Assembly (NCBI GenBank): GCA_002372615.1
Contig: DFHG01000008.1
Span: 36,590-100,589, forward strand
Length of the DNA: 64,000 nt
Origin: Mycoplasmataceae bacterium UBA3729
GTDB taxonomy: Bacteria > Bacillota_I > Bacilli_A > Mycoplasmatales > Mycoplasmoidaceae
Reading direction: 5' to 3'
Under the pieces are notes generated by a model, which worked only from the letters and a program-made list of their open reading frames with translations, did not search any database and had not been told where the DNA came from. The position numbers and the translations under genes were made by a program. Shown here piece by piece: positions 1,276 through 38,963 of the stretch (positions within the stretch are counted from its first letter, which is position 1; the number at the start of each line of letters is the position of its first letter).

Positions 1276-3372
1276 ATGAAATACAAATTATCAAAATTTT
1301 TATTATTATTTAGTACAGTAATTCCAACAATGTGTACATTTACAACTATTTCTTCAAGTTGTACACAAAAAAAAGAGGATGATGATGATGATGACACCAT
1401 TATCAATGATTATTTAACTTTAGAAGTTAAAGATGATTCATCTTTATGTTTCTGATGTAGTGATTTAATGAAACCATCTCAATCACCTAACTTGTATTAT
1501 GCTTGCTATGATCCACAAACTAAAAATAAGCAATTAGTTTGAAGAAAAATAGAAAGAATGGAAATAGAAACAAATTTTCCAACTATTGATGATATTAGTT
1601 TAAAATTAGAAAGTGGTAAAAAATATTTCTTACGTGGTGATAACTTAGATGGATGAGTAAAAGATAATTATGGAACATATACCCAATTTGGGAGTATAGC
1701 AATTAATGGTGGTGATGTAAGATTATCAGGATCAATAATGTCATTATTAGATAATGGAGAAGGTACAAAAAAATGACTCAATAATACATCGAAATGTTTT
1801 GATTCTTTATTTATATTTTCATCAGGTATAACAAAAATAGGTAACATTTTTTCTAATATTAATGAATTAGGTGATTCATGTTTTTCATCAATGTTTAATT
1901 ATTGTACTAATTTAGTTGAAGTTTCAAAGGATTTATTGCCATGGGATACATTGGCACCTGATTGCTTTTCTTACATGTTTGCTGGTTGCACTTCTTTAAC
2001 TACAGCACCTGATTTATCAGCAACAAATTTAATGGAAGGTTGTTATCAAGATATGTTTCATTCATGCCCACGTATAAATTCAATTAAACTTAATTATATG
2101 GGAAATTATCAAGAAGATTATTTTAGAAATTGATTTGCCTCTACAAGTTACATTGGTACATTTTATTACAATGGTAATAGTAGTGCTAATGATTTTGGAT
2201 TATATAATTGAACAGTTAAAAAGTTTTTTAGTTTATATAATGGTTCAAATGTATTATTTGGTTCTTTAAAAAAATCAGGTTTAGATTATAATGATTGAAA
2301 ACTTTTTTATCCTGATCAAAATTTTACTTTAAATGGATGAACACTAGATCATGATATTCCCGGTATTTCAGTTTATAATTCAGTTAATAATCAAGGTAGA
2401 GTTCTATGAAACAATTCATTAGATAAAACAATGTATGAATTTAAAGTTATTTTGCATATTCAATGCAATAATGAAAATTTAGATATTATAAGTAATAAGA
2501 TTGTTTTATGTTTATTTGATGATTCTACACTTCCTAGTGATATGAATGTTAGATGAGTAGGTCATAGAGGAACACCATCTGAATATTTTGAGTCTTCAAT
2601 AGAAAGTTTTGAATGTGCTGGGAATGATCCAAAATATGATGGAATTGAAACAGACATTCATATTACAGCAGACAATAAAATAGTTTGTGTACATGATTCA
2701 TGTTGTTTTTGAAATGATAGTAGAACTGAAAATGATAAAAATACAAAAATAGAGAGTCTTACATATGCTGAAGTAAGAAATAAATGATTAATTAATGGCT
2801 TGTCTGAATATCCTTATGATTGTCGAACTCACCAATATATCCCTCCTTTGCTTAGTGAATATTTAAATATTTGTTACAAATATAATAAAACAGCTGTAAT
2901 TGAAATCAAAAACGATTATAAGTGAGGTGACGATCAATCTGATTGAAAACCAGAAAAATTGGATGTTTTTTGAAATGAATTAACACCATGAATTAGAATA
3001 GGTTTAAAGTTTAATATTATAAGTTTTGATAATTTAACCTTAAAATATTTGATTGATACATATCAACTTACTCCAGATTTCTTTCAAATGTTGATAAATG
3101 GTTATGCTGATCCTAGTCATGATATTCATAATGATTTACAATACTTTTTAGATAACAACTTTAGTATTGATTGTACTGATTGACAAATAAGTGAAGTAGG
3201 TGGTGGTAATTTTAATCCTAGTAAAGCTAAAAGCTGAATAAATGCTTTTCATGCTAAAGGCTTGAAAGTTAATATATATACAATTAATAGTTTGTCAAGA
3301 GCTCAACAATTAATTAATTGTGGTGTTGATTATGTATCCTCTAATTATCGATATGATCGATGTCCAAAATAA
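1276..3372 (+). CDS. Surface lipoprotein: BspA-type leucine-rich repeats fused to a C-terminal glycerophosphodiester phosphodiesterase (GDPD) domain
   Basis: Signal peptide plus lipobox (..TTISSSC), followed by a D-rich linker. LRR units follow the pattern C(F/Y)xxMFxxCTSLxxAPDL. The C-terminal part carries GDPD motifs VGHRGTP, ESSIESFECA, GIETDIHITADNKIVCVHD, IEIK and NIYTINS. The ORF is continuous from 1276 (alternative GTG at 1270) to TAA 3370-3372 with TGA=Trp, checked codon by codon from 2134. Confidence 0.8.
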
Positions 3373-22837: not shown

Positions 22838-22911
22838 TGGAGCGGGCGATCGGAATTGAACCGACGTCAATAGCTTGGAAGGCTATGGTTCTGCCACTGA
22901 ACTACGCCCGC
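22838..22911 (-). tRNA. tRNA-Gly (anticodon UCC), CCA encoded
   Basis: GCGGGCGTAGTTCAGTGGCAGAACCATAGCCTTCCAAGCTAT..GGTTCAATTCCGATCGCCCGCTCCA. The cloverleaf folds by eye. Confidence 0.9.
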
Positions 22912-22929
22912 AGCCATTATAAATGATTA

Positions 22930-23015
22930 TGGTGCTGGAAGAGGGACTTGAACCCTCACGATATTGCTATCACAGGATTTTAAGTCCTGTGCGTCTACCA
23001 TTCCGCCACTCCAGC
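22930..23015 (-). tRNA. tRNA-Leu (anticodon UAA), long variable arm, CCA encoded
   Basis: GCTGGAGTGGCGGAATGGTAGACGCACAGGACTTAAAATCCTGT...GGTTCAAGTCCCTCTTCCAGCACCA. Confidence 0.9.
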
Positions 23016-23018
23016 AAG

Positions 23019-23093
23019 TGGTGTCCCACCGGAGACTCGAACTCCGGACCCCTTCATTAAAAGTGAAATGCTCTACCACTGAGCTAGTGGGAC
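23019..23093 (-). tRNA. tRNA-Lys (anticodon UUU), CCA encoded
   Basis: GTCCCACTAGCTCAGTGGTAGAGCATTTCACTTTTAATGAAGGGGTCCGGAGTTCGAGTCTCCGGTGGGACACCA. Confidence 0.9.
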
Positions 23094-23097
23094 AATT

Positions 23098-23172
23098 TGG
23101 CTGGGTAGGTTGGATTCGAACCAACGCATGTCAGAATCAAAATCTGATGCCTTACCGCTTGGCTACAACCCA
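23098..23172 (-). tRNA. tRNA-Gln (anticodon UUG), CCA encoded
   Basis: TGGGTTGTAGCCAAGCGGTAAGGCATCAGATTTTGATTCTGACATGCGTTGGTTCGAATCCAACCTACCCAGCCA. Confidence 0.9.
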
Positions 23173-23175
23173 AGA

Positions 23176-23260
23176 TGGTGGACAGAAGTGGATTCGAACC
23201 ACTGAAACCGGGGGTGGCTGATTTACAGTCAGCTGCGTTTGGCCGCTTCGCTATCTGTCC
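23176..23260 (-). tRNA. tRNA-Tyr (anticodon GUA), long variable arm, CCA encoded
   Basis: GGACAGATAGCGAAGCGGCCAAACGCAGCTGACTGTAAATCAGCC...GGTTCGAATCCACTTCTGTCCACCA. A TATAAT box (plus-strand 23271-23276) lies about 10 nt upstream of the 5' end. Confidence 0.9.
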
Positions 23261-23320: not shown

Positions 23321-23800
23321 CTATTTTATTTCTAAAATTTTAACTTTATATGGTTTTTCCATATTATGTTTTACTTCAACAGTAACACCAATTTCTTTTC
23401 CTAATACTGCTAAAGCTAGTGGTGAAACATTAGAAATTTTTCTGTTAGCAGGATTAGCTTCAGTTTCACCAACAATAGTGAAACTTTCTTTTGTTTTAGA
23501 ATCCATATCTAAAATTGTTATTGTTGAACCAATTTTTATAGATGAAGAACTACGTTTAGTTTTATTAGAATCAATAAGTGTTGAATTAGCTAAAATATCT
23601 TTAATTTCATTAATTCTTTTTTCAATATTAGCTTGTTCATTTTTTGCTGAGTCGTAATCTGCATTTTCACTTAAATCGCCTTGTTGTCTAGCTTCTTGTA
23701 ATTGTTTAATTACATTAGGGCGTTTAACATCTAATAATTCTCTTAATTCTGCTTCTAATTGTTTTTTGCCTTCAAGTGTTAAAATATTTTCATTTGCCAT
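23321..23800 (-). CDS. greA: Transcription elongation factor GreA
   Basis: LTLEGKKQLEAELRELL..RP..I..LQEARQQGDLSENADYDSAK.., 159 aa. Confidence 0.93.
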   Translation of the reverse strand: MANENILTLEGKKQLEAELRELLDVKRPNVIKQLQEARQQGDLSENADYDSAKNEQANIEKRINEIKDILANSTLIDSNKTKRSSSSIKIGSTITILDMDSKTKESFTIVGETEANPANRKISNVSPLALAVLGKEIGVTVEVKHNMEKPYKVKILEIK

Positions 23801-23852
23801 AGATGTATTAATTATAGTAATATAAAGTGAAATATATGTTGATTAAATATGG

Positions 23853-24998
23853 TTAAGACCTCTTGCAAATTACATTATCTTTGTATCATGATAAAAAATG
23901 ATCAATTTTAGAAAGTGTCTTTTGTGGAATATTTTTAATATTATCATCCACAATATCAGGTTCAAGCGGATCAATAAATTTTAAACATCCGCTTTTAGGA
24001 TCTCAATAAATCTTGTGTTTGTCAAATAAAGTATGAGTGTCGGGTTTTAATGGTAATATATTATCTTCATCTTTTATTTCCAATAATATTTCTTTGTCAA
24101 AATTATTTTTAATACATTCTTTTTTTATTTCACATACAGGTTTGATGTGTGCAAATTCTACTAAATCAATATAAACATCATCAAATTTTTTTTCTCAAAA
24201 ATTCTCAGTGAAATTTTTTCTTTTTTTATTAAGCTCACTATACAAATCATTACGATATTTTCTCACTATATTACAAATTTCTTCATGTTTTATTCTTTGT
24301 GGGCAATATTTTTTTTGAATCTTTTTAATTTTTGTTTTTTGCTCTTGTGGTGTTAATCGATGATTGAAATAATCAAAATCATCTTTAAGATTATGATCAT
24401 GATTTAATCATTCATAAAAATCTTTATATTGTTTAATGTTATTTTTTCTAGAAAAATAATCCTTTCACAATAATTTGTATTCATTTGAATCTAATTCATC
24501 CTTTTTAAATTTTAGTCGCAATGATTGGAATAAAAAACCTATATTTTCTTTTTGATTTCTGTTTTTCAAATAAAAACTTGATTTAGTTGGATTACCTTGG
24601 CCAGAAGGATTTGAACCAGTAATAATGTAATCAATATTCCCTAATGTCTGACCTATTCATTCACTTTTAAATAATGAATTTATTTTCTTTATTTGTTCAT
24701 TTTTTAGATTAATGTATTGCTTACATCTACCATTTATATTTGGAGTGTTGGTTAACCCAATGTTTTCTAATACTTTATTTCTAAATTTAAATCTAAAAGC
24801 ATTACTTTTATTAAAATGTGCTTCTGTTGTGAATTGAGTTATAAATAATTTTTTTCATTGAATTTTGTAGTCATGAATTCAATTATATTCATCAACTAAT
24901 AATATTACTTGGCAACAACTTTCTTGCTTTTTTCCAGTTTTAAAAAACAATGTAATTGGAACAAATGAATATTTAGCAATTCTTTCAACATAATGCAT
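23853..24998 (-). CDS. Type II restriction endonuclease candidate with a C-terminal HNH (beta-beta-alpha-Me) nuclease motif
   Basis: 381-codon ORF, continuous with TGA=Trp (translated codon by codon). The C-terminus carries VEFAHIKPV....DNILPLKPDTHTLFDKHKIYW. The ATG overlaps the methyltransferase stop (TAATG at 24996-25000). Confidence 0.65.
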
Positions 24999-26006
24999 TA
25001 TATAGAAACCTCATTTAACATAACATTTAGAGATGGTTTATTTGTCCATTCAGTTAATTTAAAATTTATTGATTTATAATGTGTTCTTTTTGATTTGTTA
25101 TTTTTCAAAAATTTTGTTAATATATCTAAAATTAATTCTGGTGGTATATGGCTACGCTCCATAGCATTACGTTTGTATTTTATTCGCACTTTAATTTGTT
25201 TTGACATTAATTTTGACAATTTTTGTTCTGTATTTAGCCGTTTTATCTCATCTAATTTATTGTTTTTGCATGCTCCTGATAAAATTAAATAGTAATTGTT
25301 ACTATCAATTTTTTTTATTGACATATAACCTTTTTTAGCTTTTTTTAAATTTAATTTAATATTTGATAAAAAGCATGTTGGTTTTTTTGAAAAATTTTCA
25401 TTATATGCAGAATAATGAGCAATGTTTTTAATACCATTAGTAAAACCTAAATTGTATTTAATATATTTCCAGATAAGTGAAGATGCTGGATTTTCAATGT
25501 AATAATTTTTTGGTTTAAAATAACATAAAATTTTAATTACATTTTGAATACACCTTTCACCTAGTTCACCAACATATTTTGGAACTTGTTTTCTTCCTAA
25601 TGGATATGAATTTCCTGAAAATCCATTTCATTTGACATCTTCTGGTCAAGTTTCAACTTTTTTTGTGTCATGATTTCAAAAATGGTGTGGGTTTCCTGAA
25701 AAATAATTGCCATGTTCATCTTTTATTGTTGAAATTGATTGCATTGCAGAACTAAAAGATTGACATAAACTACTTGATACTATAATATCTGGAATTTGAA
25801 TTTCATTTTTTTTAATTTTTACATTCAATTTTTTAATAACATCATTAGTTGATAGATCAAAAACAATGTTATTAAATCCATTTGATTTTTTAATAATGTC
25901 TAATGTATATACTTTAAAATATTTTTTTATTCGAGATTTTTTTAGAGCTAAGCGTAGTGAATTACACCCCCCCAAACATATCTCAAATAATAAGTCTTTT
26001 TACCAT
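24998..26006 (-). pseudogene. DNA (cytosine-5)-methyltransferase, out of frame at a G7 tract (candidate phase-OFF allele)
   Basis: ATG 26006 gives MVKRLIIWDMFGG, then G7, then TAA. With G6 or G9 the frame runs on for about 335 codons. Motifs: DMFGG(G)C (I), SSSLCQSFSSA (IV), YYIENP (VI), SHIPPEL (X). The span is 1009 nt, which is 3n+1. Confidence 0.7.
25967..25973 (-). repeat. Homopolymeric G7 (plus-strand C7) tract inside methyltransferase motif I
   Basis: Plus strand reads ..attacaCCCCCCCaaacat... It is the longest G/C homopolymer I noticed in this AT-rich window. Confidence 0.9.
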
Positions 26007-26072: not shown

Positions 26073-26489
26073 TTACAATTTCTTTAACAAAATACCGTCA
26101 TTATTTTCATAATATTTTCTTCTAATATTTATTTTTTTAAATCCATTTTTTAAATAAAAGTTGTAAGCCATTTTATTATTTGAATTTACTTCTGCAAAGA
26201 TAGGTAAATTATATTTATGTAAATATTTAATCAAACCAGTTCCATATTTGTTATGTTGAAATGATTTAATGATGCCAATTTTAACTAAATCAATATGGTC
26301 AGTTAATTTATATGCAATCATATAACCTAATATTTGATTATTATTAGTACATTTAACAAAAATACAATCTTTGTTATTAAAACATGACATCAATATATTC
26401 TTTGAATATAGACTATTATCATGAAATAATTCAGATTCTATCTCACTTATTAAATCAATGTCTTCATTATTAATTTTTACAATTTTCAT
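26073..26489 (-). CDS. rimI: GNAT-family N-acetyltransferase (RimI-like)
   Basis: 138 aa with a GNAT core (..GYMIAYK..VKIGIIKSFQHNKYGTGLI..NNKMAYNFYLKNGF). Conserved position downstream of tsaB. Confidence 0.65.
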   Translation of the reverse strand: MKIVKINNEDIDLISEIESELFHDNSLYSKNILMSCFNNKDCIFVKCTNNNQILGYMIAYKLTDHIDLVKIGIIKSFQHNKYGTGLIKYLHKYNLPIFAEVNSNNKMAYNFYLKNGFKKINIRRKYYENNDGILLKKL

Positions 26490-27057
26490 ATACTATTGGA
26501 TGCTTTAAGTATAGTGGTTTAACTATATCTAAATCTTTTACTAATTCGAATTTATTAAGATGAGAAATGATTTGTTTTTTTAAATCAACACATTCATAAT
26601 TTTTAAATATTTTAAATTTTTGATATTTCTTTAATATTTTATCTAATGAAGAATTTTTAACTAATGATGGTTTAACTATCTCTTTATAATTGTCATAAAT
26701 TGCTAAAAAACATAAATCACTTTTAGCATCAATTAGGCTAATACCAGTTCCATGATCTAATTGAAATAAAAGTGAGTTCATAACAAATAGTTTCTTATGT
26801 AATAAATTAGCTCATGTTTTTGCAATTGTATATCCTATTCTACATCCTGTAAAACTACCTGGACCAATTAATAGGTATATTGCTTCAATTTCATCCTTTT
26901 TAATCTTGTTTTTAGTTAATAAATTTGATATTCTTTCAACAACAATATCAGTCATATTTTTGTTTGTTAAAATTTGACTATAACCAACAATTTTATTAGC
27001 TAAAGAAATGATTACTAAATTACAATAATTTTGTGTTGTATCAATAAATAATTTCAT
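26470..27057 (-). CDS. tsaB: tRNA threonylcarbamoyladenosine biosynthesis protein TsaB
   Basis: MKLFIDTTQNYCNLVII.. and ..IGPGSFTGCRIGYTIAKTW... The two fragments join across TGA (588 nt). Confidence 0.8.
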
Positions 27058-28337: not shown

Positions 28338-30254
<1,917 letters not shown>

Positions 30255-35439: not shown

Positions 35440-36123
35440 ATGAAAATAAAATTTGAAGCAAAAACAAGACCATGAAAAATTGCAATATGTGTAATTTTAA
35501 TTTTTATCATATTTTTAATACTTTGGATTTTATTTTGTGAAATTGACATTTACAACCTTGATTGAATAGTTCCTCATAATGGAATTTTATGAAAAGGAAA
35601 GATTACAGCAATAAATTATGATTGATTAATAACAAAATATCCAAACGCTATTGACCAATTAGAAATAAATAAATCAATTGAAATTTACAATAAAGGATCA
35701 TTAATATTTAATTGAAATTTATTATGGATATTCATTTTACCTATTGTTTTTTCAATATTATTAACATTAAGTTTACGAATATTAAAACTAGCAAATATTG
35801 ATATGTTACCATTTATTTTTAGTATTAGCATTTGTTTATTTGTTTTATTTGTCATATCCAATTTTATCCCATATTGAGAAAATAATCAATTGTGACGATG
35901 AATGGTAAGAATATTAATAAGTGTTTCATCATTTTTTATATTATTCTTTCCCACTAATTTTATTGTTGGTAAAATTATGTTCAAATCTAAAAATCACCAA
36001 AATTATTTGAATAATTTAAAAGCAGAAAAAAATGCAATAAAATTAATCAATGAAGATTCAAATAATGCATTCGATCAATATAAAAAATCAAAAGATAAAG
36101 AAATTACTTATATAGATACTTAA
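35440..36123 (+). CDS. Multi-pass membrane protein, unknown function
   Basis: 227 aa with several hydrophobic helices. Frame shared by ATG 35440 and track ORF 35902..36123. Confidence 0.55.
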
Positions 36124-38963
36124 TTATTTTTAAAGATCTCATATAAATATTTTGCTGTATATGAGACATCTTTATATTTAATAATTTGCTCAGGTGAACC
36201 TGTGGCAATAACTTTACCACCATTATTCCCCCCGTCTGGTCCTAAATCAATTATGTAATCAGCACATTTTATAAAATCTAAATTATGTTCAATGACAATT
36301 AATGTTGAACCATTATCAACAATTCGATTTAAAACATTTAATAATTTAGCAATATCATCTACATGTAAACCAGTAGTTGGTTCGTCAAGAACAAGAATTG
36401 TATCTTTTGTACTATTTTTTTGTAAGAATTTTGCTAATTTAATTCTTTGTGCTTCTCCGCCAGATAAATTTGTAGAACTTGTACCTAGATTTAAATAACC
36501 TAATCCTACATCCTGTAATAAAGTTATTTTATGATGAATGGAAGGAATATTTTTAAAGAAATCCACTGCTTCATTTACTGACATTTGCAATACATCATAA
36601 ATGGATTTTCCTTTATATTTGACACTTAGTGTCTCATCATTATATTTTTTTCCATTACATTCATCACATTTAACATATACAGCTGGAAGAAATTGCATGT
36701 CAATCCTAATTACTCCATCTCCTTGACATTTTTCGCATCTTCCACCAGGAACATTGAAGGAGAATCTTCCTTTTTTATATCCTTTGGCACGTGCATCTTG
36801 TGTTGAAGCAAATAATTCTCTAATTTCATCAAAAACACCAATATAAGTGGCTGGATTACTTCTTGGAGTTTTTCCTATTGGATCTTGGTTAACAATAATT
36901 AATTTATCAACATTTGATATTCCAGAAATACTTTTTATTTTTCCGGTTTCAACAAATGGATTAAATAAATGCTTTTGTAAATTAGCTAATAGTGTATCTA
37001 ATACTAAAGTTGATTTTCCACTACCACTTACACCAGTTACACAAATGAATTTACCTAGTGGAAAAGTCACATCAATATTTTTTAAATTATTAGCACTCGC
37101 CCCCTTTATAGTAATGGTTTTACCATTACCACTTCTTCGTGCTTTAGGAATAGGGATAAATTTTTTATGTGAAAGATATTGACCTGTAATAGAATTTTTA
37201 CAATTAATGATATCTTGAATTGATCCACATCCAACTAATTTACCACCATTTTCACCAGCTTCTGGACCAATATCAATTAAATAATCAGCAGCACGCATTG
37301 TTTCTTCATCATGTTCCACAACAATAATTGTATTTCCTAAATCCCGCATCTTTTTTAATGCATCGATTAATCTACTATTATCTTTTTGATGTAAACCAAT
37401 TGATGGCTCATCTAAAACATAAATTATTCCAGTTAATACAGAACCAATTTGTGTAGCTAATCTAATTCTTTGTGATTCTCCACCAGAAAGTGTAGATGCT
37501 GAACGTGATAATGTTATGTAATCTAACCCAACATTTTTTAAAAATAATAAACGGTTAATTATTTCACTAATAATTAAATTAGCTATTGATTTTTGATATT
37601 CTGTTAATTTTAAATCTAAAAAATAATCAAGTAATGTATTGATTGGCATGTCTGTTAATTCAATGATATTCTTATTATTTATTTTGATTGATAAAGCTTC
37701 TTTGGATAATCTTTTACCATTGCATGCTTTACATTTCTTTTCTACCATGAATTTACCATAAAATGACCTTAATAATTCACTCTTTGTATCAAAATATAAA
37801 CGTTTTACATGATTAAGTATACCTTCATAATAATTACTACCTTGTCTTTTGATTCCACTATCTGATGTAATATTAAATTTAATTGGTTCATCTGAACCAT
37901 AAAAAATATAGTTTAATTGTTTTCTTGATAATTCTTTAATTGGTTTATCTAATGGAATTTTGTAATGTTTCAACATTGATTCAAATTGCTGTCATTCAAT
38001 ATTTTTAGTACCGACCGTATTTTTATAATATTCAATTCCGCCTTCAGTAATAGATAATTCTGGGTTTGGTACCATTTTATTTTCATCAGGTTCAAATGTT
38101 ACACCTAATCCTTTACATACTGGGCAAGCTCCAATTGGTGAATTAAATGAAAATAATCTTGGTTCCATTTCAGGTATAGAAAAACCACAAATATCACATG
38201 AATGAGTTTCAGAAAATATATGTTCTTGATCATTAATAACAACAATGATTTTTTTATTACCATATTTTAATCCAGTTTCAATAGAATCATTAATCCGTGA
38301 TTTTGTTTCATTATCATGGTGTCCAATAATACGGTCGATAACAATATCTATATTATGAAATTTATTCTTTTCTAGATTAATTTCTTCATCCAAAGAATAA
38401 ATTTTATCATCAATTCTTACACGCAAGAAACCATTCTTTCTTAATTTATCTAATTCTTTAGCAAATGTTCCTTTTTGTTTTCTTACATAAACTGATAAAA
38501 TTTGAATTCTATCATTCTCTTTAAATAAAGTATCAACTTGATTAGAAATTTGTTGGATTGTTAATGTTTTAATCTTACCATGTCCATTAGGACAAAATGG
38601 TTCTCCAATTCGTGCAAATAAAATTCGTAAGAAATCATAAATTTCAGTTACTGTACCAACAGTTGAACGAGGATTTTTGGAAGTTGATTTTTGACTAATA
38701 GCAATTGTTGGAGACATTCCCTCTATTGCATCAACATTTGGTTTTTTATTACCACCTAAAAATTGACGTGAATATGTTGATAAAGATTCAAGATAACGTC
38801 TTTGCCCCTCAGCAAAAATAGTATCGAATGCTAAAGAAGATTTTCCACTACCACTAACTCCTGTAATAACAACTAATTTATTTTTAGGAATAGAAACATT
38901 AATATTTTTAAGATTATTTTCTTTAGCACCAATAACTTTAATTATTTTTGTTGAATCTGACAT
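36120..38963 (-). CDS. uvrA: Excinuclease ABC subunit A
   Basis: Two ABC cassettes (GVSGSGKSS twice, LSGGE.QR twice) and zinc modules. The fragments 37992..38963 and 36120..37976 join (2844 nt). Confidence 0.95.

Follow-up and report, generated by a model that had tools for sequence, protein, structure and literature searches.

The window analysed here, a stretch of 64,000 nucleotides (nt) from contig DFHG01000008.1 of Mycoplasmataceae bacterium UBA3729 (assembly GCA_002372615.1), carries on its minus strand a DNA methylase gene (M) followed directly by a gene for a putative restriction endonuclease (R) of the MAG4270 family. The start of M is cut off from the body of the gene by a run of seven guanines (G7) that appears to act as a phase-variation switch, here in the OFF phase, and R lies intact behind it. 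The G+C content of the window is ~25%, and its long open reading frames (ORFs) stay open only when TGA is read as Trp; the host is therefore a Mollicute using translation table 4, and ORFs were called with a table-4 script. The features of the two-gene cassette are as follows.

25962-26006, minus strand: methylase start as read in the window, with ATG at 26006, then MVKRLIIWDMFGGV, then TAA at 25964-25962
25967-25973, minus strand (C7 on the plus strand): poly-G tract G7, phase OFF, encoding glycines of the S-adenosylmethionine (AdoMet)-binding motif I
24998-25966, minus strand: methylase body after the G tract, 323 codons, open to the TAA at 25000-24998 and out of frame with the start codon
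25009-25012, minus strand: Shine-Dalgarno (SD)-like GAGG, 10 nt upstream of the nuclease ATG, within the last methylase codons (..NEVSI, stop)
24996-25000, minus strand: TAATG, in which one A belongs to both the methylase TAA and the nuclease ATG, read from the sequence
23853-24998, minus strand: nuclease R, ATG at 24998, stop at 23853, 381 codons under table 4, intact
24009-24164, minus strand: HNH (beta-beta-alpha-Me) motif of the nuclease, residues 279-330, AHIKPV ... NILPL ... THTLFD

A divergent C5 methylase gene interrupted at a poly-G tract

From ATG 26006 the methylase reads MVKRLIIWDMFGG, followed in the window allele by a Val codon and a stop, and this N terminus agrees with the family consensus M-K-K-x-V-I-W-D-L-F-G-G-G. 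With G7 the gene terminates after 14 codons; G9, and formally also G6, restores the frame. A first-pass annotation of this DNA, made from the letters and the ORF list, had placed the methylase out of frame at the G tract, and so it is, with the G7 run standing between ATG 26006 and the body. The same annotation had taken G6 for the ON length. G6 is indeed in frame, but the natural ON length is G9 (protein P0044, ...FGGGCNS), and a G6 product would be one glycine short of the three in the family consensus.

M is a divergent C5-cytosine-type DNA methyltransferase of the phrog_2882 family. We take this identity from the PHROGs database, a structure model and conserved motifs, because a Pfam search of the methylase gave no match to PF00145 or to any other methylase family, and a PDB sequence search returned only pentatricopeptide-repeat matches, which were discarded as spurious. 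The C5 family hidden Markov model TIGR00675 (dcm) scored 20.8 bits against the methylase, below its cut-off of 100.65, and PF00145 is present in more distant members of the homologous group. The PHROGs profile phrog_2882, "DNA methyltransferase," matches residues 4 to 230 of 335 with an E value of 2.7e-32. For the structure we used the AlphaFold model of P0013, a natural ON homologue 78% identical to the window methylase (predicted local distance difference test score [pLDDT], 85). The top Foldseek matches of this model in the PDB are M.HaeIII, M.HhaI, Dnmt2, DNMT1, and M.MpeI, with a probability of 1.0 and an E value of ~6e-5 at a TM-score of only ~0.33. The motif IV Cys (C81, SSLCQSFS) and the motif VI IENP are invariant in 22 methylase sequences, and the ratio of nonsynonymous to synonymous substitution rates (dN/dS) of the methylase against the near-identical locus L001 is 0.10. 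Since beta-strand 1 of the model comprises residues 5 to 10 (VVIWDL) and the glycine loop residues 11 to 16, the G run is assigned to the glycines of AdoMet-binding motif I.

Alleles of different tract length within one species

Because alleles that are >90% identical carry G7, G8, or in-frame G9, the G tract is, on allele comparison, a genuine phase-variation switch for M, which is OFF in the window. Within this 90% cluster, the G7 alleles P0042, P0046, and P0047 begin MGGCNS or LGGCNS (called from TTG), the G8 alleles P0012, P0045, P0049, P0050, and P0051 begin MRYVWGGCNS, and the in-frame G9 allele P0044 begins MVKRLIIWDMFGGGCNS. At the DNA level, G7 is found in the window and in L015, and G8 in L001; a contig from an independent JGI metagenome assembly, 100% identical to the window across 3142 nt, shares G7. 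A second lineage (P0015), ~55% identical, contributes six in-frame G9 alleles and two with G8. In every OFF allele the coding stretch from the canonical ATG to the tract is intact and conserved, which fits a reversible state.

For the out-of-frame methylase, gene callers choose a TTG or ATG next to the tract as the start (P0012, P0014, P0017, and P0042), giving proteins that begin MRYVWGG... or MGGCNS.... One of these, P0017, is an NCBI record entitled "DNA cytosine methyltransferase," and its called start hides both the frameshift and the true N terminus. We considered, and rejected, the production of active methylase from such starts in the G7 and G8 frames, as the product would presumably be crippled by lacking beta-strand 1 (V-I-W-D-L-F), which is conserved family-wide and forms a core strand in the model.

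The tract appears to be kept by selection and not by coding need, since GGG is rare (46 of 888 glycine codons in window genes, or 5.2%), relatives encode the same glycines without slippery codons (GGC-GGA-GGA in L010/L011 and GGT-GGT-GGA in L013/L014), and the tract itself is retained across lineages with nucleases only ~25 to 57% identical to that of the window. L002, L005, L009, and L098, with nucleases 24.8 to 55.8% identical to that of the window, have it at the same codons, as does L012, in which the first 109 aligned residues of a partial nuclease are 65% identical; it is also conserved in L006 to L008. Only two G/C runs of at least 6 nt occur in the whole window. The other is a C6 on the plus strand (36228-36233), within the 3' part of a 947-codon ORF at 36120-38963 on the minus strand.

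An intact nuclease of the MAG4270 family

The ORF call and the translation agree that R is uninterrupted over its 381 codons under table 4, eight of which are in-frame TGA=Trp codons, as the first-pass annotation had it. NCBIfam places the product among the MAG4270-family putative restriction endonucleases: model NF045952 scores 139.7 bits (cut-off, 53; E value, 1.2e-40) in a match that is near full length, from nuclease residues 34 to 364 and profile positions 29 to 356 of 366. Six of six nuclease homologues tested also score above the NF045952 cut-off (119 to 178 bits), including that of the cultured species Mycoplasmoides alvi. The C-terminal motif, which reads ...VEFAHIKPV...NILPLKPDTHTLFDKH, had been recognized from its letters as HNH-like, and Pfam PF13391 (HNH_2) now matches residues 279 to 330 above cut-off (29 bits against 21; E value of 9.9e-7). 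Inactivating substitutions at catalytic positions were sought by alignment and none was found: H284, N313, H322, and D326 are invariant across 12 aligned family members that are 30 to 93% identical.

The AlphaFold model of the nuclease consists of a large, confidently folded N-terminal domain of ~230 residues and a poorly modelled HNH region (pLDDT of <50). Neither Foldseek nor profile search found a significant match of the nuclease in the PDB, where the N-terminal domain resembles no solved structure, and neither PADLOC nor PHROGs has a model matching it. Between the window and the 93%-identical L001 allele, the dN/dS of the nuclease is 0.39. With this ratio and with an ORF that is intact in each of the eight OFF loci described below, R appears to be under selective constraint.

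The junction between M and R

As described in the first-pass annotation, the nuclease ATG shares the final A of the methylase TAA, so that TAATG at 25000 to 24996 leaves no intergenic space. The same overlap occurs in L001, L006 to L008, L009, L012, and L014, and the gap at the other loci is 0 to 5 nt; the junction thus falls between -1 and +5 nt at all 13 methylase-nuclease loci compared. The overlap had been read as a special feature, but it is ordinary in this genome, in which 20 of 40 co-directional gene pairs of the window lie no more than 5 nt apart and three have a TAATG overlap.

R had also been described as having no separate ribosome-binding site. Contrary to this, the GAGG 10 nt before its ATG forms a duplex of -6.8 kcal/mol with the anti-SD sequence, a value reached by 11% of 55 window gene starts and by 1.4% of 1519 internal ATGs, and the site is conserved in homologues, as GAGGTG in L006 (-10.1 kcal/mol) and as AGGAGGTG in L009 (-15.0 kcal/mol). 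Gene starts in the window mostly have no SD sequence (median duplex energy, -0.4 kcal/mol). An unstructured AT-rich start is probably enough for initiation, and what precedes the genes suggests that leaders in this organism are very short or absent. Many window genes have TATAAT within ~20 nt of their ATG (greA, 23801-23822; starts at 28347, 41624, 48114, and 58408). When the region from -100 to +40 was folded in nine loci, no stable or conserved RNA hairpin that could mask the nuclease start was found (z scores of ~0 to +1). The window start itself has a folding z score of +0.9, with positions -20 to +3 unpaired at a mean probability of 0.51.

M precedes R on one strand, and no terminator separates the two genes. 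A promoter scan gave 27 promoter-like sites against 31 expected by chance and is uninformative in DNA this rich in AT. To our knowledge, Mollicutes lack Rho and Rho-dependent polarity, so an early stop in M should not end transcription before R.

The statement that nuclease expression must depend on translation of the methylase is not supported in that form, given a site resembling a ribosome-binding site, a start free of masking structure, and a junction of a usual kind. Termination-reinitiation at TAATG very probably adds to R translation when M is ON. Nothing in the sequence marks it as the sole route, and obligate translational coupling is possible but unproven. Precedents point both ways. 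The E. coli dcm-vsr pair, a C5 methylase gene with an overlapping endonuclease gene, is reportedly translationally coupled, as Dar and Bhagwat are said to have described in 1993. The C and R genes of PvuII overlap yet are translated independently, and those of Esp1396I are coupled (PMC2997769). Overlap alone, therefore, does not predict coupling. Of the proposal that the G tract switches the whole restriction-modification (R-M) system, the part concerning M stands, since the G7, G8, and G9 alleles make the tract a real ON/OFF switch for it, and the joint silencing of R is a possibility.

Repeat-bearing MAG4270 cassettes in other genomes

The nucleases downstream of these methylases are all of the MAG4270 family. 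At 11 of the 13 methylase-nuclease loci, the methylase gene holds exactly one strong repeat, which is poly-G in eight loci, (AT)9-10 in two, and (AC)9 in M. alvi; the methylases of L003 and L004 have none. The nuclease genes are free of repeats except for A9 and (TA)5 in M. alvi. The orphan relative L010/L011, the sole close methylase without a nuclease, has no G tract either. Of the 11 repeat-bearing loci, three are in frame and eight are not, which approaches the 2:1 ratio of OFF to ON expected under free drift of tract length. The nuclease ORF is intact in eight of eight OFF loci, implying some dependence of the nuclease on the methylase, which could take the form of coupling, a protein-protein requirement, or leaky methylase expression.

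The repeat differs in kind and position between lineages. In M. alvi, a cultured species, a canonical C5 methylase gene at L097 1738-2998 (GCA_000701785.1, JNJU01000002.1; MMRKKEIRLFEAFSGIGS..., PF00145) is split between motifs I and IV by the (AC)9 (2040-2057) and is followed by an intact nuclease gene of the MAG4270 family. In a sister clade the G tract is replaced by GGT-GGT-GGA and an (AT)9-10 repeat lies inside the methylase gene (L013, 1457-1474; L014, 2897-2916). L014 is out of frame at this repeat, and L013 is in frame there and has a second frame break near its 3' end.

Distant methylase relatives (L016 to L095, ~30% identical, mostly from human-gut assemblies) have G7 or G8 runs in 22 of 80 loci, at no fewer than three positions, all of them different from that of the window tract. 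Examples are the L061 methylase (2501-3268) with G7 at 2569, L037 with G8 at 2373, and L019 with G8 at 2763. Most G7 versions are in frame (L025 is an exception), and G8 at the same site (L032 and L037) breaks the frame. L061, the one locus examined in this respect, is a phage gene that matches phrog_2882 with an E value of 6e-113 and lies 560 nt upstream of a small terminase subunit gene. None of these 80 loci has a MAG4270-type nuclease. Across this methylase family, at least one phage member included, poly-G tracts thus seem to be a recurrent feature.

Genomic setting of the cassette

In the order of minus-strand transcription, the window reads tsaB, rimI, methylase, nuclease, greA, and five tRNA genes, with a spacer of 66 nt from rimI to the methylase ATG. 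The neighbours, named from Pfam calls on the near-identical locus L001, are as follows.

26470-27057, minus strand: tsaB, ORF, upstream neighbour; the L001 orthologue has the TsaD Pfam domain
26073-26489, minus strand: rimI, ORF, upstream neighbour; the L001 orthologue has the Acetyltransf_1 Pfam domain
23321-23800, minus strand: greA, ORF, downstream neighbour, with its own TATAAT directly upstream; the L001 orthologue has GreA_GreB Pfam domains

The tRNA cluster (22838-23260, minus strand) follows greA directly and comprises Gly-TCC, Leu-TAA, Lys-TTT, Gln-TTG, and Tyr-GTA. The cassette lies between rimI and greA both in the window and in L001. In L005 its neighbours are a greA in the opposite orientation and an SduA_C-domain gene (L005 1732-2658), and in L014 it adjoins a gene with N6_Mtase and Eco57I domains (L014 5497-6768); these are defence-type domains, and their presence suggests defence islands. 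In L002, L009, L098, and M. alvi, the cassette sits among unrelated genes. The differing neighbourhoods support mobility of the cassette, and the earlier description of an island-like insertion between greA and the rimI-tsaB pair holds up, with the neighbours identified and the context changing in other genomes. An exact-pattern scan of a metagenome collection for the tract region gave no match, a protein-based scan gave distant phage relatives only, and an empty greA-rimI junction was not obtained from them. The nearest related contigs are ruminant-gut metagenome bins, from goat reticulum and sheep ileum.

Proposed account: a switched methylase and a nuclease of reduced output

On balance, we favor the view that M and R form a two-gene Type II-like R-M cassette, M then R, whose repeat switch lies in the methylase and is OFF here, and in which R is reduced in the OFF phase but not abolished, so that a further safeguard is at work. 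Replication slippage would shift the tract among G7, G8, and G9, and only G9 (formally also G6) would join the start MVKRLIIWDMF to the catalytic body. M and R are probably co-transcribed, since they are not separated by a terminator and promoter-like sites do not exceed chance. Ribosomes that finish M in the ON phase would reinitiate at the start of R, on top of initiation at R's own GAGG. In the OFF phase these reinitiating ribosomes would be lost and ~970 nt of mRNA before R would go untranslated, lowering R output. That output would probably not fall to zero, because R has initiation signals of its own and Mollicutes lack Rho-dependent polarity. A further safeguard would then cover the residual nuclease. 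The likeliest candidates are leaky methylase expression, through transcriptional or ribosomal slippage on the G run, and a nuclease that needs the methylase protein; strict coupling would be a third. In the ribosomal route, the G run would let the P-site tRNA-Gly re-pair in the +1 or -1 frame. Repeats that are always in M and never in R, together with the C-terminal tail of R-linked methylases, hint that R needs the M protein.

Several points weigh against this account. If the truncated proteins that start at TTG or ATG beside the tract (P0042, P0012, and P0014) are active after all, then G7 and G8 are not OFF states. R could be translated independently of M, given its SD-like site, the lack of masking structure, and tight junctions genome-wide, and the OFF-phase drop in R may then be small. 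Internal starts in the long methylase frame, such as the ATG at 25744, could bring ribosomes to the TAATG even in OFF cells. The restriction activity of R is itself a prediction, since its HNH region is poorly modelled and no solved structure resembles its N-terminal domain.

Alternative explanations

The alternatives are taken in descending order of probability. The first, which we regard as unlikely though ahead of the rest, is strict coupling: R would have no usable initiation site of its own, and an out-of-frame tract would silence M and R together and completely. At 13 of 13 loci the genes overlap or lie no more than 5 nt apart, even with a displaced start codon (L002 versus L012), the intact R at eight of eight OFF loci calls for an explanation, and the reported behaviour of dcm-vsr offers a precedent for a coupled C5 methylase and endonuclease. 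Against these stand the GAGG and the stronger SD sequence of homologues, above all in L009, and a start that is not sequestered by RNA structure, in an organism in which most genes initiate without an SD sequence and an AT-rich unstructured ATG is likely to suffice. The overlap is also ordinary for the genome and the junction is equally tight in the repeat-free loci L003 and L004, and the overlapping C and R genes of PvuII are translationally independent (PMC2997769).

Dependence at the protein level is, in our estimate, less probable still. R would need the M protein to bind or recognize DNA, much as the Res subunit of Type III systems depends on Mod, so that M in the OFF phase would disarm R. 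Repeats arose at least three times independently (poly-G, [AT]n, and [AC]9), always in M and essentially never in R, a pattern typical of Type I and Type III systems, in which R depends on M. The R-linked Mollicute methylases bear an extra insertion and a tail of ~45 residues that are absent in orphan phage relatives, and the OFF-to-ON ratio of 8:3 is near the 2:1 expected if the OFF phase costs nothing. However, the large and confident N-terminal domain of R is what a self-sufficient HNH enzyme of Type II or IIS would have, and the orphan methylase L010 retains the C-terminal tail without any R.

A third explanation, that R is no restriction enzyme but a nickase or repair-type endonuclease accompanying a C5 methylase in the manner of Vsr, harmless without M and in need of no coupling, seems improbable. 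It would suit a nuclease that follows a C5-type methylase at 13 of 13 loci, that has no PADLOC or PDB match and is labelled "putative" in NCBIfam, and whose OFF alleles are tolerated. But the cassette changes its genomic context and adjoins defence genes (SduA_C in L005; N6_Mtase/Eco57I in L014), and a role in repair alone leaves unexplained why repeat and R go together, the orphan L010 having no G tract. A large N-terminal domain followed by a C-terminal HNH motif is the architecture of HNH restriction enzymes, and that of R fits it.

Finally, a sequencing or assembly artefact or a decaying pseudogene pair is very improbable: homopolymers are error-prone, the window and most of its relatives are metagenome assemblies, and out-of-frame loci (eight) outnumber in-frame ones (three), but sequencing error as the source of the frameshift was rejected in view of the identical G7 in an independent assembly and of several alleles of each length, the tract persists across deep divergence despite strong codon bias, and decay is at odds with a leader intact in every OFF allele, dN/dS values of 0.10 (M) and 0.39 (R), and the in-frame P0044 in the same species.

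Beyond the favored account of the window cassette, we tentatively propose that MAG4270 cassettes may be a Type II-looking class in which the nuclease depends on the methylase, through obligate reinitiation or a need for the protein, and which can therefore be switched safely by repeats, a design that would then have arisen independently on at least three occasions.

Relation to known systems and significance

Phase-variable methylases are well documented in Type I, Type III, and fused Type IIG systems, in which a methylase in the OFF phase also disarms the nuclease. The window cassette resembles the Type III mod-res phasevarions, including the poly(GA) mod of Mycoplasma agalactiae, in having the repeat in the methylase, the nuclease directly downstream, and switching through M. 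It differs in that Res is biochemically inactive without Mod, whereas the window encodes a Type II-like C5 methylase and an HNH nuclease with a large N-terminal domain of its own. As in dcm-vsr and in PvuII C/R, the 3' end of an upstream C5 methylase or regulator gene overlaps the endonuclease start, but neither of those pairs has a repeat switch.

The closest parallel for the switch itself is the CpG C5-methyltransferase of M. agalactiae, another Mollicute C5 methylase whose gene is controlled by poly-G length: a tract of 6 to 11 G decides whether the product is complete, and most strains are OFF (Dordet-Frisoni et al. 2022, PMC9465063). In that species the enzyme is an orphan, with the tract in mid-gene, upstream of the catalytic domain. 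In the window, by contrast, the tract lies in the motif I glycines of a phrog_2882-family methylase, and an intact nuclease gene begins at the methylase stop. Another mycoplasma Type II methylase-nuclease cassette that is polycistronic and has a repeat in the methylase is MhoVII of Mycoplasma hominis, in which a (TA) repeat has raised the suspicion of phase variation (PMC12898733); its methylases are N6/N4 fusions, its nuclease is of another family, and its repeat lies in the target-recognition domain. For the nuclease, the MAG4270 family to which that of the window belongs has a curated NCBIfam model (NF045952) and is annotated as putative only.

Poly-G-controlled C5 methylases, repeat-switched mod-res operons, and the curated nuclease family are thus already known. 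In the literature searched, we found neither a switch within the motif I glycine codons nor the observation that methylases partnering MAG4270 nucleases nearly always bear repeats, of three kinds, with an intact Type II-like nuclease beside a silent methylase in the majority of natural alleles.

The same kind of switch in a two-protein Type II system should be suicidal, yet eight of the 11 repeat-bearing loci are OFF beside an intact and constrained nuclease. The mechanism behind this tolerance, be it coupling, protein dependence, or leaky frameshifting, would show how a toxin-like gene comes under a stochastic switch. Annotation pipelines mask the switch by starting the methylase wrongly at the TTG beside the tract. 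Both gene transfer in, and genetic manipulation of, ruminant and other mycoplasmas probably meet a variable barrier in this family.

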